A stretch of DNA of 64,000 nt from Minisyncoccota bacterium (GCA_026195275.1 JAPHQU010000004.1:3119-67118); one strand, 5' to 3'; numbered from the stretch's first letter, positions 3,470 to 50,271 are shown. Translations and numbers: made by a program. The notes: a model not told the origin generated them from the letters alone.

Positions 3470-4000
3470 ATGAAACTAAAGATATCAAAAGTTCAAAGTA
3501 TGCTGATCGGAGCAATCCTCGGAGCGGTAATTGCTCTTGGAGTATACGGCTTCTTATTTTTTGAGATAAAAAATAAGAATAACCAGGCCTCAATCCTCCA
3601 GAATCAACTCGATATTGAGATCAGGAAGGATCAACGACTCAGGTCAATCAAACAGCTCTTGAGTGAACTCCATGTCGAGGTTGATACGGTCGATAGATAT
3701 TTTGTAGGTGCTGACGAGGTGGTCGATTTTCTTGAGGAACTCGAGTTGCTCGGAAATATTGCTGATGCTTCAGTGGAGGTAAATTCAGTAAGCGTGTCAG
3801 AAGGTGGAGAGGCTATTCCATACGAACACCTGCGTGTAGAATTTCACACGCAGGATCGGTGGGTAGACCTGATACACATTGTCTCTCTTTTGGAGACGAT
3901 GCCATACGGAGTACGCATTGAACGTTCCCAGATTGAGCGTGTACCAAATTCAACCCTTTGGCAGGCACACATCATTTTCACAGTGTTAAAGCTTAAGTAA
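3470..4000 (+). CDS. pilO: PilO-like pilus assembly protein
   Basis: 176 aa with an N-terminal TM helix, a coiled-coil and a C-terminal domain. Third gene of the pilMNO cluster. Confidence 0.55.
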   Translation: MKLKISKVQSMLIGAILGAVIALGVYGFLFFEIKNKNNQASILQNQLDIEIRKDQRLRSIKQLLSELHVEVDTVDRYFVGADEVVDFLEELELLGNIADASVEVNSVSVSEGGEAIPYEHLRVEFHTQDRWVDLIHIVSLLETMPYGVRIERSQIERVPNSTLWQAHIIFTVLKLK

Positions 4001-7349: not shown

Positions 7350-7361
7350 CAATGGTAAACA

Positions 7362-7393
7362 AAAACGACAAGTTGCAACTTGTCGTTTTTGTT
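7362..7393 (+). terminator. Rho-independent terminator after tRNA-Leu
   Basis: AAACGACAAGTTGCAACTTGTCGTTTTTGTTT hairpin plus U-tract. Confidence 0.7.
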
Positions 7394-7463
7394 TAGAACG
7401 CAATTTGCATTGCGTTCGTGCCATTGTGCCAGGCGGAGGCATGTCCCGAGCTGTGAGAGGGAA

Positions 7464-27780: not shown

Positions 27781-27793
27781 TCAATGGTATATA

Positions 27794-27821
27794 AAATCCT
27801 TGAATTAATTCAAGGATTTTT
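27794..27821 (+). terminator. Rho-independent terminator
   Basis: AAATCCTTGAATTAATTCAAGGATTTTT. Confidence 0.7.
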
Positions 27822-36588: not shown

Positions 36589-38844
36589 CTACCCTCGTCC
36601 TCTTTCGCCTGATTCATTCTCATCAACGTTCTCATAATCTTCTTCCTCTTCGGTGTCATAGTCTTCTTCTGGCGCTTCGTAGGACTCTTCAGTATCGTCT
36701 GTGCCGACAAGAATATCGCGCGGTTTTGAACCGTCTGCTGAGCCGATCACACCGCGCTCTTCAAGCATGTCCATAAGGCGCGCGGCACGCGCATAGCCAA
36801 CTCGAAGTTTTCGCTGGAGGTATGAGGTTGATGCTTTGCCCGCTTCAACAACGACATGGTACGCGTCTTCGTAGAGGTCGTCTTCGTCGTCGCTACCGTC
36901 AATCGTCGTCGCGAAGATCGAGTTGTCACCCTTTGCTTCGGTGAGATCGATTTCGCTTGGGAGTTCGTCTTCATAGTTTTTAGCGAGGAAATTTGCAACC
37001 TTCTTCACTTCATTCTCTGAGAGGAATGGTGACTGGATGCGGCGCGGCTTCGACATCTCGCCGGAGAGGTAGAGCATGTCACCGGCGCCGAGAAGCTTCT
37101 CGGCGCCGCCGGTATCAAGGATGGTGCGTGAGTCGATCTGGCTCGCGACCTGAAGCGCGATACGGGTCGGTACGTTTGCTTTGATAAGCCCGGTAATAAC
37201 CTGGACTGACGGACGTTGTGTCGAGAGGACAAGGTGGATGCCGACCGCACGGCTCATTTGAGCAAGGCGCACAATACCAGCCTCGAGCTCTCGTGGGTAG
37301 GTCTGCATAATGTCCGCGAGCTCATCAACAACAACGACGATATAGGGCATTGGCTCAGGCATCTCTTCTTCAGAAAGGTTTTTCTTCACTGCAGGTGCGA
37401 CCACGTTCTTGTGGTATGAGGCAATATCGCGCACCGACTCTGACTCAAGGATGTCGTAGCGTCGATCCATCTCGTTTGCGAGCCACTTGAGCGCAAGAAT
37501 AGTCTTCTTTGCATCAGTAATGACCGGAGTAAGGAGGTGTGGGATGTTTTTGTAGAGGGTAAGTTCAACACGCTTTGGATCGACCATTATGAGGCGGAGA
37601 TCCTGTGGTGACTTGCGGTACAGTAACGACATGATGAGGTTGTGGATCATCACCGACTTACCAGAGCCGGTGGTGCCGGCAATCAAGACGTGCGGCATCT
37701 TTCCTAGATCAGCAAAGTGCGATTCTCCGGTGATGTCGCGACCAAGTGCGACGAGGAGCGGTTTGTCGGTATCTTTGAAGTCACTTGCCGACAGAAGGGA
37801 AGCGAGCCCAACGGTTGATTTTGAATGATTTGGCACCTCGATACCCACGAGCGACTTGCCGGGGATTGGTGCCTCAATACGCACCGGGTGCGCAGCGAGG
37901 GCGAGTTCGAGATTATTTTGGAGTGTGAGGATCTTTGAGAGGCGTACACCTTCGGCGGGCTTAAGCGCGTAGCGGGTGACTGTCGGCCCGACAGATATTT
38001 CATCCATCTCTACGTTAATGCCAAAGTTCTGTAGCGTACGCTTGATGATGTTTGCGTTTGCTTTCACATCACCAACATCAGGCTTGCCTTTGTCTTTCTC
38101 GAGGAGTGAGAGTGGGGGAGTCTCGTAGTCGCCGTAGACCGGGTAGACTGATATCTCACCCTTTTTCTTACTGAAGCCAAACATACCTCGCTTCGGCTCG
38201 TCTTCAACCTCTTCATCTTCTTCTTCGTATTCTTCCTCATCTTCGTACTCCTCTTCAGGCTCATCTTCGTACTCCTCATCTTCGTCTGCGTAGGTCTCGA
38301 CATCGTACTCCTCATCTTCTTCTGTGGCTTCATCCTTACGTGAGAGGAGGCGTGAGAGGAGTGGAAGGGAAGACGGAGTTGGGAGGAAGTCGAACATAAT
38401 AACGAGCGAGAGAAGAGTGACCACTACGAGCACCAAGACGCTCGCATAGGTATCAAAGAGTGCGATAAGTGGCAGTCCAATAAAATGCCCCAAAATACCG
38501 CCGCGGCCGGGGAGTGCGATATCGATAAGCCCAAGTCCGGAAAAAAGAAACAAGACAGCGCTGATGATCTTAAGTGGTCCGTATGCATGCTCTAAGTCAC
38601 GAAAGAACGATGTCGCAAAGAAGAGGAGCACTGCTGGCAGCAGGAAGTAGCCAACACCGAGAAGGAATGAGAGTCCGCTGTAGGTCATCTCCCCTGCGAT
38701 CCCGGCAAGGTTGAATGCGGCAAGAATAAAGAAGAGCGTGACCGAGAGGAAGACGATGCCCCAGATGCCGCGGACAGTCTCTTCTTTTAGTTCAGCAAAA
38801 ATATTTGAATATTCGGATTCCTTTTTCTTTTTTTTTGGTGCCAT
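36589..38844 (-). CDS. ftsK: DNA translocase FtsK/SpoIIIE with a highly acidic linker
   Basis: N-terminal TM region, acidic linker EEDEEYDVETYADEDEEYEDEPEEEYEDEEEYEEEDEE, motor domain with GTTGSGKS Walker A, and a C-terminal gamma wHTH. Confidence 0.9.
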   Translation of the reverse strand: MAPKKKKKESEYSNIFAELKEETVRGIWGIVFLSVTLFFILAAFNLAGIAGEMTYSGLSFLLGVGYFLLPAVLLFFATSFFRDLEHAYGPLKIISAVLFLFSGLGLIDIALPGRGGILGHFIGLPLIALFDTYASVLVLVVVTLLSLVIMFDFLPTPSSLPLLSRLLSRKDEATEEDEEYDVETYADEDEEYEDEPEEEYEDEEEYEEEDEEVEDEPKRGMFGFSKKKGEISVYPVYGDYETPPLSLLEKDKGKPDVGDVKANANIIKRTLQNFGINVEMDEISVGPTVTRYALKPAEGVRLSKILTLQNNLELALAAHPVRIEAPIPGKSLVGIEVPNHSKSTVGLASLLSASDFKDTDKPLLVALGRDITGESHFADLGKMPHVLIAGTTGSGKSVMIHNLIMSLLYRKSPQDLRLIMVDPKRVELTLYKNIPHLLTPVITDAKKTILALKWLANEMDRRYDILESESVRDIASYHKNVVAPAVKKNLSEEEMPEPMPYIVVVVDELADIMQTYPRELEAGIVRLAQMSRAVGIHLVLSTQRPSVQVITGLIKANVPTRIALQVASQIDSRTILDTGGAEKLLGAGDMLYLSGEMSKPRRIQSPFLSENEVKKVANFLAKNYEDELPSEIDLTEAKGDNSIFATTIDGSDDEDDLYEDAYHVVVEAGKASTSYLQRKLRVGYARAARLMDMLEERGVIGSADGSKPRDILVGTDDTEESYEAPEEDYDTEEEEDYENVDENESGERGRG

Positions 38845-40078: not shown

Positions 40079-40829
40079 TTGTTGTTAAAATCCGATAAGC
40101 GTGCTGTAGGCGTGTTGTATGAAATATCTTTGTTTCTAGCCGTATATACCCAATACCCAATACATGACCTCTAATCCCTCACGACGCGTTGACTTTTTGA
40201 GTGAAAAGCGTAGTATGTACAGCAATGGATGTTAGCGAACACCCAACCCTGAAATAGGGGATAAGCGGGCCGAATACGGTCCTCTTTGTTGTTGTGTTTG
40301 TTTCCGTGGAGTGGATCTCCACAAAAGGACGTTGTCCTTTTATCCACACATACTGTTTTGTGAGTACATTCAAGACGGATATAATTTGCTTAAGCAGTCT
40401 CGCAGGTGCGAGATGTGAATTGGGCGAACCATCAGTTACGAATTGCACGCAACAGTATCGGGCAGATCGTTGACAATTTCATACAGTTCAGAAGCAGCAT
40501 GCTCTCGCCGAGCGACTTTGTCGTTTTGTGGGTGCATACGTTACAGATACACCAGTACCACCACGGAAGCTTTGAAGTCCGCATGACAGACTAAACACTC
40601 TTGCCTGCTAAACTCGTCCCTTGTCGATATTCAGAGGCGAGATTAGTGAAGGAAAAATATCGCATGTGAACAGCTTCACTGCTCGGTCGCAAAACAGAGC
40701 ACGGAGTTGAACACAGAAAAGGACGGACATATTTTTGGTCGAAAGAAAATAGGTCCGTACCTAAATGACGTTTGTGTGTCTGTCGACACACAGGCACACA
40801 AAGGCATTTATAGGAAATTAAAGGTCACT

Positions 40830-43800
40830 ATGATTAACACATTAGAAACACGAAAAGTTGTAACAGCGCTTATCGTTGTTGCAATGATCTTCGGTGCACT
40901 CTTCGCATTCACTACCGTGAAGGCGCAGGCGCTCACCGAGGCTCAGATTCAGTCGATCCTCTCGCTCCTCTCATCATTTGGAGCTGAGCAGGCAACTATC
41001 GACAATGTTGACGCTTCCCTCCGTGGACAGCCAACATCAGGAACCGGATCAACAGGAGGAACGACAGCATGTTCGTTCACACGATCACTTACGATCGGTG
41101 CAACAGGTGCTGACGTGACATGTCTTCAGACATACCTTGAAGGTACTGGACACTTCACGTGGACAGGTGCCAAGGGTTACTTCGGTACTATTACCCAGTC
41201 AGCTGTAGCCGCATGGCAGGCAGCAAACGGAGTCTCACCAGCAGTTGGATACTTCGGCCCAATTTCACAGGCGAAGTACACAGCAGTAGCAGGAACAACT
41301 GGTGGCACCACAGGTGGCACCACTACTCCCGCACCAACAGGAACAGGACTCTCAGTTGCAGCAGCAGCACAGCCAGCAGCATCACTCGCGCCAAATAGCG
41401 CGGCACGCGTACCATTCACAAAGTTCACGGTTACCGCCGGAACTGACGGAGCGGTTACGATGAACAGCGTTACTGTTGAGCGAACAGGTCTCGGAGCAGA
41501 CGCATCATTCTCAGGAGTAGTTCTTCTTGATCAGGATGGTACACAGCTCGGAACCGCGAAGACATTCAACTCAAACCACCAGGCAACAATTGGTGAGGAT
41601 GTAGTAGTCCCAGCAGGGTCAACCCGCACCTTCACCGTTGCAGGTAACATGGCTTCAGACAACTCTACCCGAGCGGGACAGGTTGTTGGAATCAATGTAG
41701 TTGCGGTTAACACCTCAGCTGCGGTTTCAGGTTCACTTCCAATCACTGGAGCAATGCACACCATCAACGCAACCCTTTCACTTGGGTCAGTAACGATGGC
41801 AGTGTCTTCATTCGACCCGAACTCAGCACAGACCAAGGAGATCGGATCAACCGGCGTACGATTCGCTGGAATCCAGATCACTGCAGGTTCAGCAGAGGAC
41901 GTTCGAATCAAGAACATCCGATGGAACCAGTCAGGTTCAGCAGGAAAGGATGATATCGCAAACGTAGTTACTGTTGCAAACGGAGTAGCGTACCCAACCA
42001 CAGTTTCATCTGATGGTAAGTACTACACAACTTCATTTGGAAACGGTATTGTTATCGGAAAGGGTAACAACATCGATATCTACGTAAAGGGTGACATCAT
42101 CGGTGGTTCAAACCGAACAGTCATCTTCGACATCTACAAGACGACTGATCTCTACATCACCGGAGAAACCTACGGATACGGAATCACACCTCCAGCAGGA
42201 AGTGGTACTGCAGCAACGACTTCATCAGTCTTCACTGCAGGGACTCCGTTCTTCGACAACGCAACAATGACGATCTCAGCTGGATCAGCTTCAACGATCC
42301 AGAAAGCGATCTCAGTTGCGTCACAGAACATTGCTGTCAACGTTCCAAATCAGCCACTTGGCGGATTTGAGACCGACATCAAGGGTGAAGCGATCAACAT
42401 TGCAGGTTTGACCGTTACGGTTGCAACCTCATCAGGATCAGGAACAGGAGTCTTGACCAACGTATCAATCGTTGATCAGAACGGCTCAGTTGTTGCAGGT
42501 CCAGTTGACGCGGACACCGCAGGAACTTCATTAGTCTTCACCGACTCAATGACCCTTCCAACAGGAAAGATGGTCTACACCATCAAGGGTAAGGTAGCTT
42601 CAGCTATCGGAAACGGTACTGTCTACACCCTTTCTGTTACCCCTTCTGGCTGGACAACTCCAGTTGGAAACGTAACGGGAGACTCAATCACGATTTCACA
42701 GGGAGTATTCACGCTTAACCCAATGACGGTTAAGGCGGCTGACCTCAACGTGAGCGTGGCACCAAACCCAGTTGCACAGAACATTGTGGCAGGAGCGCAG
42801 GGTTACACCTTCGCGAACTACCAGTTCGACGCAACGCAGTCAGGTGAGGATGTACGATTCTCATCAATGGTTGGATTGCTTAACGGCAGCACAAACGCTA
42901 CCGCAGGTGCGTACAGCAACTTGACGTCATGTCAGTTGTGGGATGGTTCAACTGCGTTGAACGGCGGTTCAAACGTAGTTAATCCGACAGCAGCTGCAAC
43001 ATCATCTGCAAGCACCAACACCTTTACCTTCGACAACACTCTTACTGTTGCAAAGGGAACGGTTAAAACATTGGCACTCAAGTGTAACCTCTCAAGCTCA
43101 GCTGATACGGCTTCGACCTATCAGTGGGGTATTGCAGCAGTTGACGCTAACATCTCAGTTACCGGTGTAACCTCATCGGTTGCAGTTACAGAGGACGTTA
43201 CCGCATCTAACGGTCAGCTTATGACCGCAGCAGCAGGAACCCTCGTAGCTTCAGAAGACGCATCAAGTCCTTCATACGCAATTGTGAAGGCAGGATCAAC
43301 TGGAGTAACAAATGGAATCATCAACTTCCACGCTGCAAACGAATCAGTAACGATCCAGCGCATTGGTCTTACCCTTACGAATGCAACCGCATCATCAACC
43401 TCAAGCGACCTCGTACGAGCAACCTTGTGGGATGGTTCAACCATGATTGGTGACGCATACTTCGTAGGTGCAAACACCAACGCAACGTCAACTCTTTCAA
43501 CACCGGTAACGGTCGCGAAGGACTCTGACAAGGACATTACCGTTAAGCTTGACCTTGCATCAGTTGGCGCAAGCCAGTCTGGTAACCAGGGAGCGCTTAT
43601 CGCAGTCGATGTTGACACCAACGGAACCAACACCCAAGGTGTTGGAACCTCAGGAACCACCATCAACGCATCAGGTTCAACTTCGTTCTCAGGAGTACGT
43701 ATGTTCTCATCGTACCCAACGATTACCAAGCAGGCTGTTCCATCAACCGCCTTGGTTAACGGAGTCATGGATCTTTACCGATTCAGCGTAACGGCGAGCG

Positions 43801-44321
43801 CCGGAGGAAATGGAGTTGGTATCCACCAGTTCACCATCAACCTCTCAACCTCATCAGCAAGCGCTGTATCAGGTACAACCACAGTTACATTGGTAGACGT
43901 ATACGCGTACACCGATGCGAGCTACTCAACGCCTGTATCAGGCTACACGAGCGGTAAAGTTATTACCCAACTCGCAAGCCTCGCAGGTTCTGGAGACAAT
44001 GACGCACAGTTGTCATCAATCCTCCAGATCCCAGCAGGAGCTACCTACTACTTCCGAGTAACAGGTACAGTTACATTGACGGCAGGAACAGGAACCTTCT
44101 CAGGATCGGTTACAACCCGACTTGGAGGTGACTCAACCTACCCATCACTGTCAACACTCATGGGAGCACAGGCGTCAGTTGACGGAACAAGTCCGGACAA
44201 CTTTGTGTGGTCGCCAAACGCGACAACAACGTCAGCAGCAGGTCATGTTGACTGGACAAACGGTTACTTCATCTCAGGACTTCCATCGGATGGTTCAGAG
44301 GTCGTAACATTGTCTAAATAG
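40830..44321 (+). CDS. Giant secreted cell-surface protein: signal peptide + peptidoglycan-binding domain + ~1000 aa of Ser/Thr/Gly/Ala-rich Ig-like repeats
   Basis: Signal peptide MINTLETRKVVTALIVVAMIFGALFAFTTVKAQA. PG_binding_1-like motif LTIGATGADVTCLQTYLEG...GYFGTITQSAVAAWQAANG. The remainder is low-complexity beta-rich repeats. Confidence 0.7.
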   Translation: MINTLETRKVVTALIVVAMIFGALFAFTTVKAQALTEAQIQSILSLLSSFGAEQATIDNVDASLRGQPTSGTGSTGGTTACSFTRSLTIGATGADVTCLQTYLEGTGHFTWTGAKGYFGTITQSAVAAWQAANGVSPAVGYFGPISQAKYTAVAGTTGGTTGGTTTPAPTGTGLSVAAAAQPAASLAPNSAARVPFTKFTVTAGTDGAVTMNSVTVERTGLGADASFSGVVLLDQDGTQLGTAKTFNSNHQATIGEDVVVPAGSTRTFTVAGNMASDNSTRAGQVVGINVVAVNTSAAVSGSLPITGAMHTINATLSLGSVTMAVSSFDPNSAQTKEIGSTGVRFAGIQITAGSAEDVRIKNIRWNQSGSAGKDDIANVVTVANGVAYPTTVSSDGKYYTTSFGNGIVIGKGNNIDIYVKGDIIGGSNRTVIFDIYKTTDLYITGETYGYGITPPAGSGTAATTSSVFTAGTPFFDNATMTISAGSASTIQKAISVASQNIAVNVPNQPLGGFETDIKGEAINIAGLTVTVATSSGSGTGVLTNVSIVDQNGSVVAGPVDADTAGTSLVFTDSMTLPTGKMVYTIKGKVASAIGNGTVYTLSVTPSGWTTPVGNVTGDSITISQGVFTLNPMTVKAADLNVSVAPNPVAQNIVAGAQGYTFANYQFDATQSGEDVRFSSMVGLLNGSTNATAGAYSNLTSCQLWDGSTALNGGSNVVNPTAAATSSASTNTFTFDNTLTVAKGTVKTLALKCNLSSSADTASTYQWGIAAVDANISVTGVTSSVAVTEDVTASNGQLMTAAAGTLVASEDASSPSYAIVKAGSTGVTNGIINFHAANESVTIQRIGLTLTNATASSTSSDLVRATLWDGSTMIGDAYFVGANTNATSTLSTPVTVAKDSDKDITVKLDLASVGASQSGNQGALIAVDVDTNGTNTQGVGTSGTTINASGSTSFSGVRMFSSYPTITKQAVPSTALVNGVMDLYRFSVTASAGGNGVGIHQFTINLSTSSASAVSGTTTVTLVDVYAYTDASYSTPVSGYTSGKVITQLASLAGSGDNDAQLSSILQIPAGATYYFRVTGTVTLTAGTGTFSGSVTTRLGGDSTYPSLSTLMGAQASVDGTSPDNFVWSPNATTTSAAGHVDWTNGYFISGLPSDGSEVVTLSK

Positions 44322-44397
44322 TCAGCAATGACTAACAACTAGGTGGTTCGCTAACACAATCCTCCTAGTCGGCTAGACCGAGCAATCGGCCAAGCTA

Positions 44398-44430
44398 GCA
44401 AAAACCCCCTACTTCGGTAGGGGGTTTTTG
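44398..44430 (+). terminator. Rho-independent terminator
   Basis: AAAACCCCCTACTTCGGTAGGGGGTTTTT. Confidence 0.75.
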
Positions 44431-44466
44431 CGTTGCCATTTCTCCCTTCTCACACACCTTCCACAA

Positions 44467-44495
44467 AAATCTTGACGTCGGACGTCAAGATTTTT
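44467..44495. repeat. REP-like palindrome copy 1: AAAATCTTGACGTCGGACGTCAAGATTTT
   Basis: Perfect 11-bp inverted repeat around a central G, with A/T flanks. Four copies lie within 2 kb around a RAYT gene. Confidence 0.8.
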
Positions 44496-44589
44496 GTACA
44501 TGAAGGGTGGTTAAGGGTGATTTTGTGTGCATTGCATGGCGCGTGCGTTTCCCATACAATGTCTTCATATGTTCAATCAGGAAAACACT

Positions 44590-45354
44590 ATGAAAAAGAA
44601 TCTATTTATTGGCGCAGGTGTAGTGGCGTTGCTTGTGCTCGCAGCTGCCGGCTACTGGTACATGAAAGCGGGGGATACCACTACTCCACCAGAAGACGGC
44701 ACTACCGTCATCGAAGGAGGGGAGAATCGCATTGAGTTTGATGACACGCTTATCGAAAAGGTCGCACATCCACCGCTCGATCGCACCGTTGCCTTTTCAT
44801 CAACTCTCCCCCAGGATGCGCGTACTGCTCTTGAGACCAATATTGCGAAGCTTGTGGGTCAGCTCGAGGATGACTCGGAGAACTATGGTGCATGGCTCGA
44901 CCTTGCACTTATGTACAAGACGTCAGGTGACTACGAAGGTGCCGTTGAGATCTGGGAGTACATCGCGCAAGTGGTCCCCGGAGAATCAGTCTCGTACCAC
45001 AACCTCGGCAACTACTACCACCACGAAGTGGAAGATTTCGTGACCGCAGAGTCATACTTCAAGCAGGCAATCGAGCGAAATCCCGGTCAATCGATTCACT
45101 ACCAGGCACTCTTTGAACTCTACCGATACTCGTACAAGACCGACACTAACCTTGCAGAAGAGACTCTTAAAGAGGGGATTAGTGCGGTAGGGAATAGCAT
45201 CGACCTTCTCATCTCACTTGGGCGTTTCTACAAAGAGACCGGACGAACTGAGGAGGCTAAGCAGACGTACCTCGAAGTGCGGAGTAAAGCAGAGGCCGCT
45301 GGCAATGAGAACTTGGTGCAATCGGTTGATGCTGAGCTAGAGGGTCTCTACTAG
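44590..45354 (+). CDS. TPR-repeat protein with N-terminal signal/TM anchor
   Basis: MKKNLFIGAGVVALLVLAAAGYWY, then TPR-like helices (GAWLDLALMYKTSGDYEGAVEIWEYIAQ...). Confidence 0.6.
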   Translation: MKKNLFIGAGVVALLVLAAAGYWYMKAGDTTTPPEDGTTVIEGGENRIEFDDTLIEKVAHPPLDRTVAFSSTLPQDARTALETNIAKLVGQLEDDSENYGAWLDLALMYKTSGDYEGAVEIWEYIAQVVPGESVSYHNLGNYYHHEVEDFVTAESYFKQAIERNPGQSIHYQALFELYRYSYKTDTNLAEETLKEGISAVGNSIDLLISLGRFYKETGRTEEAKQTYLEVRSKAEAAGNENLVQSVDAELEGLY

Positions 45355-45547
45355 GAAGATGAAACCGCTTACAAACACAACCTTCTTCAAATTCCTCTTC
45401 GGCTTTCTTGCGCTGCTTTTCTTGAGCTTCATCATAACCGGCGCTGTCGCCCACTTCGCAGGGGACAGTGTCGACCCGGCCACTCAATCTGCCTGCGACC
45501 AAGGCAGCGACTGTTGATCCGCTCTGCTTCATTACCTTATTTCACAC

Positions 45548-45576
45548 AAAATCTTGACGTCCGACGTCAAGATTTT
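45548..45576. repeat. REP-like palindrome copy 2 (central C, i.e. opposite orientation)
   Basis: AAAATCTTGACGTCCGACGTCAAGATTTT. Confidence 0.8.
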
Positions 45577-45635
45577 TTCTTCCCTTTCTATTATGAAGAT
45601 ATCAGCTAGGTATTAACTGTAGGATATGTCTAATC

Positions 45636-46328
45636 TTATTCCAGAGTAATTCCTTCCAACTCGCTCATTATGGACCTGGACTTGAGCAATGCGCGCATTT
45701 GTTTTTCATAGCCCTCCTCGCCCCCGAGGAGATCAAGAAAGAACTTTCGATCTGTGATAGAGGGAAAATTCTTTTTTCCTAAGTAGTCGGAATGACTCGA
45801 CCAACGATATGATTGTAGATACTCCTCTGCTTCTCTACAGTTTGAAAGACTTCCTTTACGCCACTTTGGCATATTTAGATCAAGTGGGTTGAAGTGTATG
45901 TAAAAAGGAAGATAGAGAAAGTGTGCATCAGTGGCAATTTCGACCTTTTTATATTTTCCTTGCCACAGTGCGCCGTTACGTTCGTATTTTTCATTAAATG
46001 CTTTGGTGTATCCGCCACCGAGTTTTTTCATGAATAGCGACAAATTTTCCATATCATCATCAATAGGGGAGACAAGAAGATGGTAGTGATTCGGCATTAA
46101 ACAGAAACAATGAATCTGCACCACTGGCTCGCGTCTTTTTTTCCAAGAATCTTGACGTCGGACGTCAAGATTCTCTGATGATGCAAGGTGGTGTTTGGTC
46201 AGTCCGTTCGAACTTTGCTTATTGTTGAATTCATATAAATCGTGCAAGAACCGCACGCGATCCTTGTCGTTAAGGAAAACCTTTCGTTTATCAACGCCGC
46301 GGTTATATACATGAAAGAAACGCGTCAT
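45636..46328 (-). CDS. REP-associated tyrosine transposase (RAYT; IS200/IS605 TnpA-like Y1 HuH)
   Basis: Motif I FHVYNRG, HuH motif MPNHYHLLV, and catalytic region GALWQGKYKKV...YIHFNP...SYRWSS. Confidence 0.8.
   Translation of the reverse strand: MTRFFHVYNRGVDKRKVFLNDKDRVRFLHDLYEFNNKQSSNGLTKHHLASSENLDVRRQDSWKKRREPVVQIHCFCLMPNHYHLLVSPIDDDMENLSLFMKKLGGGYTKAFNEKYERNGALWQGKYKKVEIATDAHFLYLPFYIHFNPLDLNMPKWRKGSLSNCREAEEYLQSYRWSSHSDYLGKKNFPSITDRKFFLDLLGGEEGYEKQMRALLKSRSIMSELEGITLE
46147..46173. repeat. REP-like palindrome copy 3, located in frame inside the RAYT coding sequence
   Basis: GAATCTTGACGTCGGACGTCAAGATTC, translated in the RAYT frame as ENLDVRRQDSW between motif I and the HuH motif. Confidence 0.75.
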
Positions 46329-46447
46329 ATAAATAACTCTAGCATGATATACACAGCATAATTGAGCTATCTATTAACACAGATGCTTGATGTGATGGGT
46401 ATAATGCCTAATACGAAATAAAACGAAATAAAATCTTGACGTCCGAC

Positions 46448-46476
46448 GTCAAGATTTTTTGTGAGTTATGAACATC
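46448..46476. repeat. REP-like palindrome copy 4 (central C), upstream of RAYT
   Basis: AAAATCTTGACGTCCGACGTCAAGATTTT. Confidence 0.8.
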
Positions 46477-46518
46477 TGGCGTGTGAATGATGAATAGAGA
46501 GAGGAAAATTTTGGTAGT

Positions 46519-47145
46519 ATGAAAAATATGAAAGAATTTCTCCTTCGGGCATGGGGAGTGGGGCGGTGGGCGTTGCTCATCATTTTTGTCCTCTACATCG
46601 CACTGGTCATCTATCGCGTTCCGTTTGTCGCAGAAGATGAGCAGACACAGGAAGCAATCGCGTTCATCAACGCGCAAAAACTCAACCTGGCAGACGTAAC
46701 GGGGGAGCGGCTCCCACCTTCGCCTGACGTAGCGCTCAACAACGCGACTGTTGAAGGGGTTGATGCGAATGAGAACGGTATCCGTGACGATGTTGAGCTT
46801 GCTATTTTTGAGCGATATCCTGGTGATCAGAATATCGAGATCCGCGCGGCGATGCTTCAGTACGCGCTTGGATTGCAGCTTGAATTAACCCAGGTTTTTA
46901 ATTCAGAGACGTGGGTTGCTGTTACACAAAGCGAAGAAAGAGCGTCAGGTTGTCTCCTGAGTGTCTATTCGGTTGATGTGAACGAATACACTGGTTTAGA
47001 GGATTATTTTTCAGCTCGGTCTGAGGTAAGGGGATTAATCTTTAACACCGAACAGCGAAATGAGGTTGAAAATTCTATAGAGAGGTATCAAACAACATTT
47101 GGTTTACTCCAGGGAGAGAACTGTGACCTTATTTTTGATAATTAA
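46519..47145 (+). CDS. Hypothetical membrane-anchored protein
   Basis: 208 aa with an N-terminal TM helix; no motif recognised. Confidence 0.45.
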   Translation: MKNMKEFLLRAWGVGRWALLIIFVLYIALVIYRVPFVAEDEQTQEAIAFINAQKLNLADVTGERLPPSPDVALNNATVEGVDANENGIRDDVELAIFERYPGDQNIEIRAAMLQYALGLQLELTQVFNSETWVAVTQSEERASGCLLSVYSVDVNEYTGLEDYFSARSEVRGLIFNTEQRNEVENSIERYQTTFGLLQGENCDLIFDN

Positions 47146-47154
47146 TGAAGGTAA

Positions 47155-50100
47155 ATGCGTAACCTTTGGATAGTTTTTATACTTCTTCTCTTACTCAATC
47201 CTGGCGTATCGCTTGCAAATTGTAGTGAGGACGGGTCCACGGTTGTTTATGTTAATGGGATTTTTACAGGATTGGGAAAAGCAAAAGATGACCTCGGTCT
47301 TTTTGGTAATCTGTATAGTATAAGAAATCCCAAAGATAAGGTTTCTTTCATAAACGGCTACAACCCATCTCATTTAGCCGGTCTTGGGGATGCGGTACAG
47401 GTTGTCTCGCAAGCGATGGGGTCGTCGGTTAATAGTTATGACCTCAAGACGATCTTGATGCAGATTCACTCTGAGGTGAAAACGCGAAAGATACTTCTGG
47501 TTGGGCACTCGCAAGGTGCCTTTTATACAAATGAACTTTACGGTTATCTCACTGAGCACGGCGTTCCAGAAGAATCAATAGCTGTTTATAACCTCGCCTC
47601 GCCAGCGGGGTTTGTTGCAGGGGAAGGGTCTTATCTCACTTCAGCAAATGATGGTTTAGTAAATAACGTGCGCGAGTGGACAGCTGCTGTGGGTATACAA
47701 AATCCACTTCCGGCAAATATCCTCATCCCACTTGCGCGTCCGGAGCTCGATGAGCTCTTACGCGGACATTCGTTCAGTGAGGAGTATCTGGCAGGCGCGG
47801 CGAAGACCATCATCGCCGACATTACTGAGTCACTCAACTCCCTTGGTTTAGAGGATGAAACTGTCGAAAGTGAAGGGTGTTTTGACGCGCCTGCAGAGGA
47901 TTTCTCATATCAGATGCAACACACAGTTTTTGCCATGGTAGACCCTGCCGCACAGATAACACAAGAGGTTGCGGCCGCGGCGGGAAGGGCACTTGCGGCA
48001 GTTGGTGTTGCTATCACTCAGATCATTGGTGGAACGGGCATTAGCGCGGGGGACGACGCTTCACAACAAGATAGCCTGGGCACAGACAATGATTCATCAA
48101 AAACAATTTTTGAGCTCGTTCTCCCGCCTGTGCCTAATGAGGTCTTAATAAAACTTGCTGCGGCAAGTACCGATGATACCGGCGAAGACACAACACAGCA
48201 AAATTCTGATGACGACGCTCTCTATGATTCTGATACTTTGTCTGTTTCTGAGGGTGAGTCAGGTAGCTCGGATACATCGAGGACACAGGGTGAAGAGAGT
48301 GTAGAAGCTCCGTCCGAACCACGAATTGACTACGGTGGTGGCACACCGAAGATAGACTACAGTAGCAACACAGGCGATGAGCAAAATGTTGTCGGAAGCG
48401 AAGACGAGGTCGGTGATGATGAGGGCGATGAAGACAGTGAGGGTGATGCGGCAGACGAAGGAGAAGATGATGGTTCGAATGATGATTCTTCAGAAGGAGA
48501 TGATGGTGGTGATTCTTCCGAGGGCGATGAGGAGGAAGAAGAGGGTTCTGACGAGGGTTCCGAGGATAACGATTCAGAATCTGACGATGAAAGTGACAAT
48601 GAAGACAACGGCAATAATGAAGATGAAGAAGAGGGTGATGACGAGAACACTGAAGAAGACGACAACGAAGAGAATCAAGAAGGATTTACTGTTGCGTATT
48701 CAGAGGACACGACACAATCTGCAACGAGTACGATTACGTTCTCAGGTACTGGCGCTCCGGGTGATACCATCGCACAAGATTTTTCTGATGAGGTAACGAC
48801 GGTGGATGAGAATGGATTGTGGGAACTCACCGTGACTGATCTTCCGGACGGGGAGACCACTATTATCTTTAGCGAATTAAATGACAATGAAGAGGTGGTT
48901 GATACGGTGAGTATATCAGTGAGTGTTGAGACACCGCTGAAGGGGCTCAGTGTTGCGGAATGTGCGCACTCGCTGCGCACAGACGCATGTCTTCTGGGAG
49001 GGGCGGGGAGCGTGTCGTTTTCGTGGGATTTTGATGAGGGAGAGTTGTACCGCGTGACGCTTAACGGAGCGAGTGTTGAGGAGACAAGCGCGACATCGTC
49101 TTCAGTTACACTTGGGGTTGGTGAACATACGGTTGAGGTTTCCGCGCTTGATGTGGAAGGAAGTATTGCAACCTCGAGCACGCAGGACATTGAGGTGTTT
49201 GAAATGCCAATTGTAATTAATGAGATAGCGTGGGCGGGAACTCAAGCGAGTGCCGCCGATGAGTGGATTGAGCTCTACAACCGCACCAACTACACACTCG
49301 ACCTCTCGCATGTGGTACTTTATGCAGAAGACCTAGTGCCGTACTTGGAACTTGCGGGACCAGTTGCATCAAAGAGCTACTATCTCATTGAGCGTGGCGA
49401 CTCGAATACAACGAGTGCCGCTGAGGATATTGTGCTGGCATTTAGTGGACAGGGAAGCGGTAGTGGGCTCTCAAACAGCGGCGAGGTGCTCTATCTCGCG
49501 CAGGCTTTTGGCAGTATTGCAACAACGACACTTGACCGGACGCCCGACCTTGCTTCGTGCGGCGGTGGGTGGTGTGGCGGCGATGCGAGCAGCAAGACGT
49601 CGATGGAGCGCAAGGATGTCGATGTTGCGGGAGACGATCCGTCGAACTGGAATTCAAATAATACGTATACGGTGAATGATACCGATGAAGCCGGTGGAGT
49701 GATGTACTGCACACCAAAGTCACAGAATAGTATCTCCATTCTCACAGTTGGTTACTATTGTCCGAATGAGACTGAGAGTTATGTTGCTGGGCAAGCGTAT
49801 ACGCCGGTGAGTGGCACGTGCACATATCTCTCGGAGAATCTTTCGGGGAACCGGTATGGCGATTTGTACCGCGGAGTGGTTGGGAGCGCGACAATCGTGA
49901 ACGGACACTCGCTTGGAACAAACCCTTCGAGTACCCAGAATAATGACAGTGTTGCTGACCCGGTCGACGGCGAGAATATGTTTGCGGCAATGTATGAGAT
50001 TCATGATAATAGCGACGTCGCGAACTTCAGGAGTTTCTTCCAGATGGGTTCTAATCCGCCGCCGCATCTCTGGTATGGAATTGTTCCGTGGGTATATTTG

Positions 50101-50271
50101 GTACCAGCAGAGGAATCGTCGGGTGGTGAATCAAATGATGACGACACGGACTCTGATGATGAATCTGATCCAGAATCATCAGGTGGAGATTCTTCTACGC
50201 CACCGGGAGGACCAGGAGGACCGCCGAGTGGCCCACCTGGCGGGCCGGGAGGACCTGGTGGCCCTTTCTAG
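47155..50271 (+). CDS. Giant secreted protein: N-terminal alpha/beta-hydrolase (lipase-like, GHSQG) + acidic low-complexity region + lamin-tail domain (LTD) + Pro/Gly-rich C-terminus
   Basis: Signal peptide; LLVGHSQGAF nucleophile elbow; D/E/S/G-rich linker; IVINEIAWAGTQASAADEWIELYNRTNYTLDLSHVVL is a canonical LTD signature; C-terminal PPGGPGGPPSGPPGGPGGPGGPF. Confidence 0.7.
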   Translation: MRNLWIVFILLLLLNPGVSLANCSEDGSTVVYVNGIFTGLGKAKDDLGLFGNLYSIRNPKDKVSFINGYNPSHLAGLGDAVQVVSQAMGSSVNSYDLKTILMQIHSEVKTRKILLVGHSQGAFYTNELYGYLTEHGVPEESIAVYNLASPAGFVAGEGSYLTSANDGLVNNVREWTAAVGIQNPLPANILIPLARPELDELLRGHSFSEEYLAGAAKTIIADITESLNSLGLEDETVESEGCFDAPAEDFSYQMQHTVFAMVDPAAQITQEVAAAAGRALAAVGVAITQIIGGTGISAGDDASQQDSLGTDNDSSKTIFELVLPPVPNEVLIKLAAASTDDTGEDTTQQNSDDDALYDSDTLSVSEGESGSSDTSRTQGEESVEAPSEPRIDYGGGTPKIDYSSNTGDEQNVVGSEDEVGDDEGDEDSEGDAADEGEDDGSNDDSSEGDDGGDSSEGDEEEEEGSDEGSEDNDSESDDESDNEDNGNNEDEEEGDDENTEEDDNEENQEGFTVAYSEDTTQSATSTITFSGTGAPGDTIAQDFSDEVTTVDENGLWELTVTDLPDGETTIIFSELNDNEEVVDTVSISVSVETPLKGLSVAECAHSLRTDACLLGGAGSVSFSWDFDEGELYRVTLNGASVEETSATSSSVTLGVGEHTVEVSALDVEGSIATSSTQDIEVFEMPIVINEIAWAGTQASAADEWIELYNRTNYTLDLSHVVLYAEDLVPYLELAGPVASKSYYLIERGDSNTTSAAEDIVLAFSGQGSGSGLSNSGEVLYLAQAFGSIATTTLDRTPDLASCGGGWCGGDASSKTSMERKDVDVAGDDPSNWNSNNTYTVNDTDEAGGVMYCTPKSQNSISILTVGYYCPNETESYVAGQAYTPVSGTCTYLSENLSGNRYGDLYRGVVGSATIVNGHSLGTNPSSTQNNDSVADPVDGENMFAAMYEIHDNSDVANFRSFFQMGSNPPPHLWYGIVPWVYLVPAEESSGGESNDDDTDSDDESDPESSGGDSSTPPGGPGGPPSGPPGGPGGPGGPF

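Follow-up and report, generated by a model that had tools for sequence, protein, structure and literature searches.

The 64,000-nucleotide stretch of Minisyncoccota bacterium DNA analyzed here (GCA_026195275.1 JAPHQU010000004.1:3119-67118, hereafter the window) carries on its minus strand, at 45636..46328, an open reading frame (ORF) of 230 amino acids for a Y1/HUH tyrosine transposase that resembles the RAYTs, the tyrosine transposases associated with repetitive extragenic palindromes (REPs). It is the only long ORF at this site, and it contains a perfect palindrome, AGAATCTTGACGTC-G-GACGTCAAGATTCT, at window positions 46146-46174, in which 14-nt arms flank a 1-nt centre at 46160. The initial annotation, made from the window alone, had described a REP palindrome at 46147-46173, in frame within the RAYT coding sequence, translated without a stop and situated between motif I and the HUH motif. 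Each part of this description holds: the interval falls within the perfect palindrome, the minus-strand frame reads through it as E52-N-L-D-V-R-R-Q-D-S61, and it lies between the two motifs, with a spacing of 70 aa from G11 to H81.

Motif I (H6-V-Y-N-R-G11; 46296..46313, minus strand) occupies the first β-strand region of the Y1 fold, and the HUH motif (H81-Y82-H83; 46080..46088, minus strand) is encoded on the reverse complement as CAC TAC CAT. Conservation among homologues points to Y143 (45900..45902, minus strand), in a Y-x3-N-P motif, as the predicted catalytic tyrosine. Across 30 homologues, H6, R10, G11, H81-Y-H83, Y143, I144, and H145 are invariant and N147 and P148 are nearly so, while a YRWSSH motif varies only at its second serine, present in at least 90%. 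The tyrosine motif, Y143-IHF-N147-P148, is the Y---NP signature of class 2 TnpA_Y1 proteins (Quentin et al. 2018, PMC6006769). The ORF scores 26.6 bits against Pfam Y1_Tnp, above the cutoff of 23, and 46.8 bits against NCBIfam REP_Tyr_transpos, below that model's cutoff of 80; the protein also has a C-terminal extension of ~80 aa. A phmmer search of the PDB with the single protein returned a chance match only. The family profile matched ISDra2 TnpA in the PDB, and the top Foldseek matches in the PDB were all Y1 transposases, including E. coli TnpA_REP (4er8_A, E = 1.8e-3); the best PDB matches by sequence or fold are the TnpA proteins of ISDra2, IS200, and IS608. The window protein is 100% identical to a ‘transposase’ from a Candidatus Pacebacteria metagenome-assembled genome (MAG), and its next closest homologue among 5.8 billion proteins searched is 64% identical and belongs to a cluster of size 1. 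Homologues, 215-236 aa long, number more than 5,700; they come almost entirely from metagenomes of Patescibacteria, or candidate phyla radiation (CPR), and fall into protein clusters of one to a few members each. As judged from its motifs and modelled fold, the protein belongs with the RAYT-like Y1/HUH enzymes, although it departs from the canonical type of enterobacteria.

The palindrome recurs on both sides of the gene. The 5′ flanking copy (46430..46458) lies 101 nt upstream of the ATG, has 14-nt arms and, on the minus strand, resembles a terminator in shape; between it and the start codon lies a promoter-like site (46373-46344, minus strand). The 3′ flanking copy (45548..45576), also with 14-nt arms, lies ~60 nt past the stop codon, with convergent genes on either side. 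A fourth, extragenic copy (44463..44497) has 17-nt arms followed by a T-run and is found ~1 kb further downstream of the RAYT-like gene on the gene's own strand, between a 1204-aa ORF (40707-44321) and a tetratricopeptide repeat (TPR)-like ORF (44527-45354). The 25-nt core AATCTTGACGTCSGACGTCAAGATT has four exact copies (44468, 45550, 46148, and 46432) as against an expectation of 0.00 from 100 shuffles, all of them within 2 kb of the gene, and a search of the entire 64 kb with a 17-nt core and three mismatches allowed returned no further copy. No GTAG or CTAC adjoins any of the four window copies, and none recurs consistently in the homologue flanks listed. Against Rfam (44000-47000, E ≤ 1), the hairpins drew only chance matches below threshold. 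The idea that all copies serve as intrinsic terminators was rejected: only one window copy fits the consensus, and T-runs are not general elsewhere. A recoding function, one of the possibilities initially raised for the internal copy, is likewise not indicated, since no slippery heptamer precedes the internal hairpin in the window.

To place the internal palindrome in context, 80 homologous loci were taken from GTDB species genomes, and the DNA between motif I and the HUH motif was scanned. Of the 77 loci that were scored, 61 have a long linker and 16 a short one (55-62 aa). Perfect palindromes with arms of at least 10 nt occur in 21 of the 77 linkers, compared with one of 109 equal-sized windows elsewhere in the gene and none of 385 shuffled linkers. 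When imperfect stems are allowed, 45 of the 61 long-linker loci contain a centre around which 9 or more of 12 pairs are Watson-Crick. The hairpin centre lies 20-30 aa ahead of the HUH motif and, with all three phases scanned, falls at codon position 1 in 45 of 46 scored loci and in another phase in the remaining one. The palindrome itself differs from genome to genome (TTCCCAATGGTTGGACATCGGATGTCCAACCATTGGGAA, CCAATATAACGTAGTCGGACTACGTTATATTGG, and AATCTTACGAGGCCGGGCCTCGTAAGATT, for example). Relatives with the same spacing are therefore palindromic at this position too, each with its own genome-specific sequence, and a coincidental palindrome in an ordinary loop, which the initial annotation had named as the alternative, does not hold.

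The sequence changes among the internal hairpins are compensatory. In an ungapped alignment of 45 internal hairpins, 13 of 14 stem pairs have changed on both sides; there are 152 doubly changed cells compared with 57 in shuffles, and the covariation score of 0.574 compares with 0.152 obtained from shuffles and 0.07-0.12 from slid partners. Few of the pairs are G-U. The protein follows these changes. A ‘DVGR/DVRR’ motif that appears conserved in the protein alignment is the translation of the hairpin apex, GAC GTC SGA CGT C, and elsewhere the peptide tracks the stem, reading YEVQLRK, YEAKPRK, YEAGPRK, and YEVGLRK as the DNA passes from GAAGTT through GAGGCT and GAGGCC to GAAGTC. A back-translation test, which asks whether a peptide is encodable by a palindrome, succeeds for 83% of family 1 linkers, in phase 0 for 89 of 98, although it is weakly specific (27% of control windows reach K ≥ 11) and uninformative for the second subfamily described below. 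It is likely that thousands of related genes share this layout of internal and flanking hairpins. One G:C pair, six positions from the centre (alignment columns 12 and 24), is invariant in 45/45 internal hairpins; the same pair is found in the non-coding flank hairpins of a short-linker clade that has no internal copy, so it is probably a determinant of DNA recognition rather than a requirement for an acidic residue. A link to restriction-modification through the GACGTC (AatII-type) sites of the apex was also considered and rejected, because apices without that site occur in other genomes.

Throughout the homologous loci, the genome-specific palindrome of the internal site reappears close to both ends of the gene, upstream and downstream. 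In 41 loci, the internal core and at least one flank copy differ by no more than one mismatch in 12; of the long-linker loci, 36 of 55 have matching upstream and downstream hairpins, as do 13 of 14 short-linker loci. Within the ±4 kb loci, perfect palindromes are concentrated at only three sites: up to 250 nt upstream of the gene, up to 250 nt downstream of it, and 120-180 nt past motif I. The bracket is close in these homologues: a median of 20 nt separates the end of the 5′ hairpin from the ATG, and the median distance from the stop codon to the start of the 3′ hairpin is 3 nt, with the two overlapping in 21 of 53 cases; in the window, at ~101 nt (5′) and ~60 nt (3′), the bracket is looser. 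Examples of tightly bracketing loci are L006 (912), L005 (921), and L039 (2843), and in most homologues the 3′ hairpin either begins 0-15 nt past the stop or includes the stop codon in its stem. Hairpins that abut the start and stop codons might affect initiation or termination of translation.

Comparison of the copies within one locus bears on the molecule in which they would act. In 33 cases, eight of them in L001, outer-arm pairs differ between the internal and flank copies yet remain complementary, which favours pairing within the strand over a double-stranded site shared for protein binding. There is no excess of sense-strand G-U among in-stem mismatches (7 versus 4 in internal and 21 versus 15 in flank copies), so that nothing in the mismatch pattern is specific to RNA structure, at low statistical power. 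The centre nucleotide differs among copies of a locus mostly by complementation (C/G or T/A), indicating that copies occur in either orientation; its use as an orientation marker was rejected, as there is no consistent pattern across the upstream, internal, and downstream copies.

Few hairpin copies were seen away from the gene in the loci compared. Other loci have a few distal copies, and solitary and clustered copies were seen in unrelated metagenome contigs. Additional hairpins with a GGACGTC-S-GACGTCC apex occur in L095 (5695-5741 and 6267-6309) and L094 (3338-3370), and close to the matches in L081 and L083. These have long, divergent outer stems with arms of 21-23 nt, and some form tandem pairs of unlike hairpins, which suggests that a genome can hold several REP sub-families built on one apex. 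Some genomes also encode two or three divergent paralogues of the enzyme (L011/L015/L059 in MAG C13_metabat.bin.52, L042/L061, L039/L066, and L034/L051); these are 44-49% identical to the query, and their palindromes, where detected, differ between paralogues.

The closest relatives for which DNA is available, L085 (62% identical), L094 (P0002), L093 (P0006), and L095 (P0008), illustrate how the hairpins change. All share the GACGTC-S-GACGTC apex, and the lower stem is ATATCTT in L085 and L094, ATGGGT in L093, TCTGCG in L095, and (A/G)AATCTT in the window. Every copy found in each of the four related loci has the same lower stem: all three copies in L094 and L095, the internal and downstream copies in L093, and, in L085, where the contig stops within the gene, the internal copy and the one upstream. 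The L094 and L095 loci are orthologous; in both, the RAYT gene lies divergent to gapdh-rpiB-rpe, and the two loci share 72% identity in glyceraldehyde-3-phosphate dehydrogenase (GAPDH) and 72% in the RAYT. Synteny is also kept in L088 and L089, where the RAYT lies upstream of an Asp/Asn-type tRNA synthetase, and in both locus pairs the identity of neighbouring genes, 72-73%, is close to that of the RAYT. Orthologous synteny and GAPDH-like divergence show vertical inheritance at a fixed site under purifying selection. The three hairpins of a locus changed together in place, with no hopping of an insertion sequence (IS) between sites.

The linker segment itself behaves as an insertion, as the initial annotation had proposed, since both a sister clade with short linkers and most of a second subfamily are without it. 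In a neighbour-joining tree, 14 of the 16 short-linker loci form one clade, sister to the long-linker group and with a linker ~10 aa shorter; the 14 short-linker loci with both flanks contain no convincing internal copy, and 13 of them have the matching flank hairpins counted above. The second subfamily (family 2), which turned up by chance when metagenomes were scanned for the hairpin of the window, numbers 513 members or more and shares ~30% identity with the window protein. The extra segment is missing from most members; a subset carries an inserted ‘[KR]SDL’ stretch, the DNA of which is an AAGTC-N-GACTT hairpin with its centre at codon position 3, and in L083 and L089 this internal hairpin matches the upstream and downstream hairpins. 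L088 has two internal copies of TGCAAGTCAGACTTGCA, read in two frames (RVCKSDLHT and GASQTCT), together with two flank copies; the internal copies, at 291-315 and 350-368, lie 59 nt apart and resemble a bacterial interspersed mosaic element (BIME)-like pair inside a coding sequence. L091, a family 2 locus with no insert, has flank hairpins only, in the form of REPIN-like inverted doublets: at 2945-2990 and 3694-3735 (and also in L092) there are perfect palindromes of 42-46 nt, each made of two inverted AAGTC-N-GACTT units. By these distributions, the cognate hairpin has entered the same loop in frame, independently, at least three times.

The place of insertion looks permissive. In an AlphaFold2 model of the window protein, residues 43-62, which include the hairpin-encoded peptide (52-61), have predicted local distance difference test (pLDDT) values below 50 and no regular structure. 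These residues connect a helix (21-34) to the strand (70-77) that leads to the HUH motif, so that modelling, a check proposed in the initial annotation, places the extra residues in a low-confidence loop, and the low confidence suggests that this loop is disordered. Linker length varies from 55 to 83 aa among homologues. The hairpin probably occupies a permissive, disordered loop in which the peptide follows the DNA.

Between 40 and 52 kb, all long ORFs other than the RAYT lie on the plus strand, and because GC skew is positive over the whole window the gene is probably oriented head-on to the replication fork; in L088, L089, and L091 the gene is co-oriented with its neighbours, and a head-on orientation is no rule. 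A 1038-aa ORF at 47155-50271 has a signal-like N-terminus, low-complexity tracts rich in Asp, Glu, Ser, and Gly, and a Gly-Pro-rich C-terminus. Other perfect palindromes in the window, unrelated to the RAYT hairpin, lie at 7356-7395, 27793-27820, and 37083-37108, and one of them has 20-nt arms and no spacer (TAAACAAAAACGACAAGTTG/CAACTTGTCGTTTTTGTTTA).

The hairpin that flanks the gene on both sides has its third copy in the internal palindrome, an old element that is locked in codon phase and evolves in concert with the flanking copies through compensatory changes. The initial annotation had raised the possibility that the RAYT was hit by its own cognate REP, and as an account of the history this stands, given that the segment is an inserted copy of the flank hairpin. 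As a recent event it does not, because the phase is shared by 45 of the 46 scored loci and the insertion is clade-wide and ancient.

The explanation that we favour overall, at somewhat better than even chances, is that the enzyme's own REP-like hairpin was inserted in frame long ago and recurrently, and is held in agreement with the flank copies as a site that matters at the level of DNA. According to this explanation, the palindrome would be the REP-like hairpin of a RAYT-type Y1/HUH enzyme, and the two copies on either side of the gene would correspond to those of a REPtron or of an IS200-type unit. A third copy would have entered long ago, in frame, into the loop between helix 1 and the HUH strand, where the ribosome would read through it and the ‘DVGR/DVRR’ peptide would be a by-product of translating the apex. 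The Y1/HUH enzymes of IS608 and ISDra2 and E. coli TnpA_REP recognize single-stranded DNA hairpins (PMC3479197, PMC8266576). If the window enzyme likewise acts on all three copies as single-stranded DNA hairpins, this would be the simplest reason for their staying matched, and strand exchange or conversion between copies 200-600 bp apart, together with hairpin-templated repair, may homogenize them. One would expect expression to be restrained by each of the hairpins, at the ribosome-binding site, within the ORF, and at the stop codon, which favours a self-limiting site in cis. That the internal site limits the enzyme's own expression or activity is the least certain part of the proposal.

A more specific proposal, which we hold only tentatively, is that the in-frame hairpin is a selected working site, at which the RAYT may bind or nick its own coding strand in conjunction with the hairpins at the start and stop codons. 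If so, the gene would contain a built-in feedback that couples the level of the enzyme to the state of its repeats, much like an ‘origin inside the rep gene’. Moreover, because the hairpin is translated, each RAYT protein sequence would record its own DNA target, and cognate REPs would be predictable from protein sequence alone in thousands of uncultured genomes.

Several observations weigh against the favoured explanation. The internal copy is dispensable: a whole clade is without it, and in about a quarter of long-linker loci it has decayed, the flank hairpins having been retained. With a median of 9 bp, internal stems fall short of the best flank stem (median 13 bp, p = 0.0006), which fits a tolerated passenger in conflict with coding. 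Alignment rows were required to have at least 9 of 12 pairs, and since rows were thus picked for pairing, the percentage of paired cells is partly circular; the variety of pair types is not. Template-switch mutation can keep palindromes perfect without selection, and the half-sites of a symmetric double-stranded operator would covary likewise. The structural model is of moderate quality overall (mean pLDDT 66), and binding or cleavage of the hairpin by the window protein is assumed from knowledge of the family.

Part of this evidence would be accommodated by a neutral passenger, a reading that we consider possible though not probable. It shares the same origin, an old in-frame self-insertion of a REP into a permissive loop, and holds that the internal copy has no function and tracks the flanks by homogenization only, whether through short-tract conversion between repeats 200-600 bp apart, RAYT-driven replacement, or hairpin-templated repair. 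The loss or decay of the internal copy in many lineages that retain the gene and its flank hairpins, the shorter internal stems, and the fact that most of family 2 never had an internal copy are all consistent with a passenger, and because REP copies cluster beside the gene, self-hits are likely to arise. Set against this, pairing is retained in 45 of the 61 long-linker loci at ~50% protein identity, where neutral sites are saturated. The 33 outer-arm pairs described above are unique to the internal copy and could not have been copied from the flanks, and a passenger would have to have been fixed at least three times independently in the same loop.

The hairpin could instead act in the messenger RNA, jointly with those of the 5′ untranslated region and beside the stop codon, slowing ribosomes, attracting a double-strand-specific RNase, or stabilizing the message, independently of any activity of the enzyme on DNA. 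The segment 46100-46220 (minus strand), folded as RNA in line with a check proposed in the initial annotation, does form the palindrome as its dominant stem (-39.3 kcal/mol, z = -3.98), and in most homologues, with the 5′ hairpin ~20 nt ahead of the ATG and the 3′ one touching or overlapping the stop codon, all three copies could be transcribed. In IS200, stem-loops in the mRNA repress tnpA, and Liang, Rudd and Deutscher reportedly found in 2015 that REPs within ~15 nt of a stop codon lower translation in E. coli. An RNA element, however, gives no reason for three hairpins to share and co-change one sequence; G-U pairs are rare, in-stem mismatches have no sense-strand wobble bias, and the window's 5′ copy lies upstream of the only promoter-like site. 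We regard an RNA-level role as improbable.

Still less probable is a double-stranded, symmetric operator bound by a dimeric regulator, for which the helical C-terminal part of the RAYT-like protein itself is a possible candidate, with the internal copy serving as a roadblock operator. The perfect symmetry about a 1-nt centre, the position of the 5′ copy near the promoter or ribosome-binding region, and the covariation expected of symmetric half-sites are all compatible with such an operator, but complementarity spans the whole arm of 10-21 nt, including the innermost bases, far beyond an operator half-site, and the outer arms that differ between copies of one locus while remaining complementary point instead to pairing within a strand. 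Finally, a recent self-insertion at the start of pseudogenization, or a chance palindrome arising from a conserved protein motif, is a first impression available from a single sequence only and can be excluded for practical purposes: the same position and phase recur in dozens of genomes with different, covarying sequences, the ORF and all catalytic motifs are intact, divergence at orthologous loci equals that of GAPDH, and the same sequence stands in matching non-coding flanks, beyond the reach of any protein motif.

Among known systems, the closest unit is the REPtron, a RAYT/TnpA_REP gene flanked by its cognate REPs (Nunvar 2010, PMC2817692; Ton-Hoang 2012, PMC3333891; Quentin 2018, PMC6006769; Corneloup 2021, PMC8266576). 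The likeness extends from the Y1/HUH enzyme, with its class 2 Y-x3-N-P and WSS-type motifs, to the bracketing of the gene by genome-specific perfect palindromes that co-evolve with it and to vertical inheritance at a fixed locus. Divergent paralogues of one genome, each with its own hairpin, resemble the multiple REPtrons of Stenotrophomonas and Pseudomonas, and the concentration of repeats near the gene is as reported for Marinomonas REPtrons. The loci described here differ in having a copy of the cognate hairpin inside the ORF and in frame, in the absence of a GTAG head, in loops of 1-3 nt, and in flank hairpins that abut the start and stop codons; atypical REP heads are known for subclasses 2.6 and 3 (PMC6006769). 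Few copies were seen beyond the locus (one in the 64 kb of the window), and the protein falls below the NCBIfam RAYT cutoff and bears its C-terminal extension.

Elements of the IS200/IS605 family (IS200, IS608, and ISDra2) share the catalytic fold and the organization as a single-gene unit of ~0.8 kb delimited by subterminal hairpins. Here, however, the tyrosine motif is Y---NP and not the class 1 Y---Q, and both ends carry the same palindrome, with no distinction between a left and a right end. In contrast to such elements, the loci compared give no sign of multiple identical copies or of mobility and instead display orthologous synteny and housekeeping-like divergence.

Translated, in-frame palindromic repeats in permissive regions, absent from shorter homologues, are also familiar from the Rickettsia palindromic elements (RPEs) and from intragenic GTAG/CGTC REPs (Di Nocera 2013, PMC3733652). 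The difference is that the host gene here is the presumed mobilizer of that very repeat, and that the insertion is conserved over a very large clade, matched to the flanks, and recurrent at the same loop. In-frame REP and RPE insertions in other genes were already known. A literature search of limited coverage returned no report of a REP inside a RAYT ORF or of RAYT/REP systems in CPR, and nothing relevant on autoregulation.

The gene A of phiX174 and repC of pT181 contain their own nick sites, which are replication origins of small replicons with a demonstrated function. As in the present loci, the cognate hairpin or nick site of a tyrosine nicking enzyme lies within its own coding sequence, co-inherited and co-evolving with it. 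The RAYT-like gene differs in being chromosomal and in having two further copies outside the ORF, and the analogy is a functional one only.

RAYT/REP systems are among the commonest repeat systems of bacteria. A very large family in which the presumed target of the enzyme lies inside the enzyme's own gene provides a natural paired record for the co-evolution of enzyme and site, and recoding of the loop offers a simple experimental handle on RAYT self-regulation through its own hairpins. The family is also a clear case in which a constraint of DNA secondary structure dictates protein sequence, and a warning that motifs such as the ‘conserved DVGR’ are not to be read as protein function. Self-hits by a domesticated transposase can thus be fixed repeatedly at one permissive loop.

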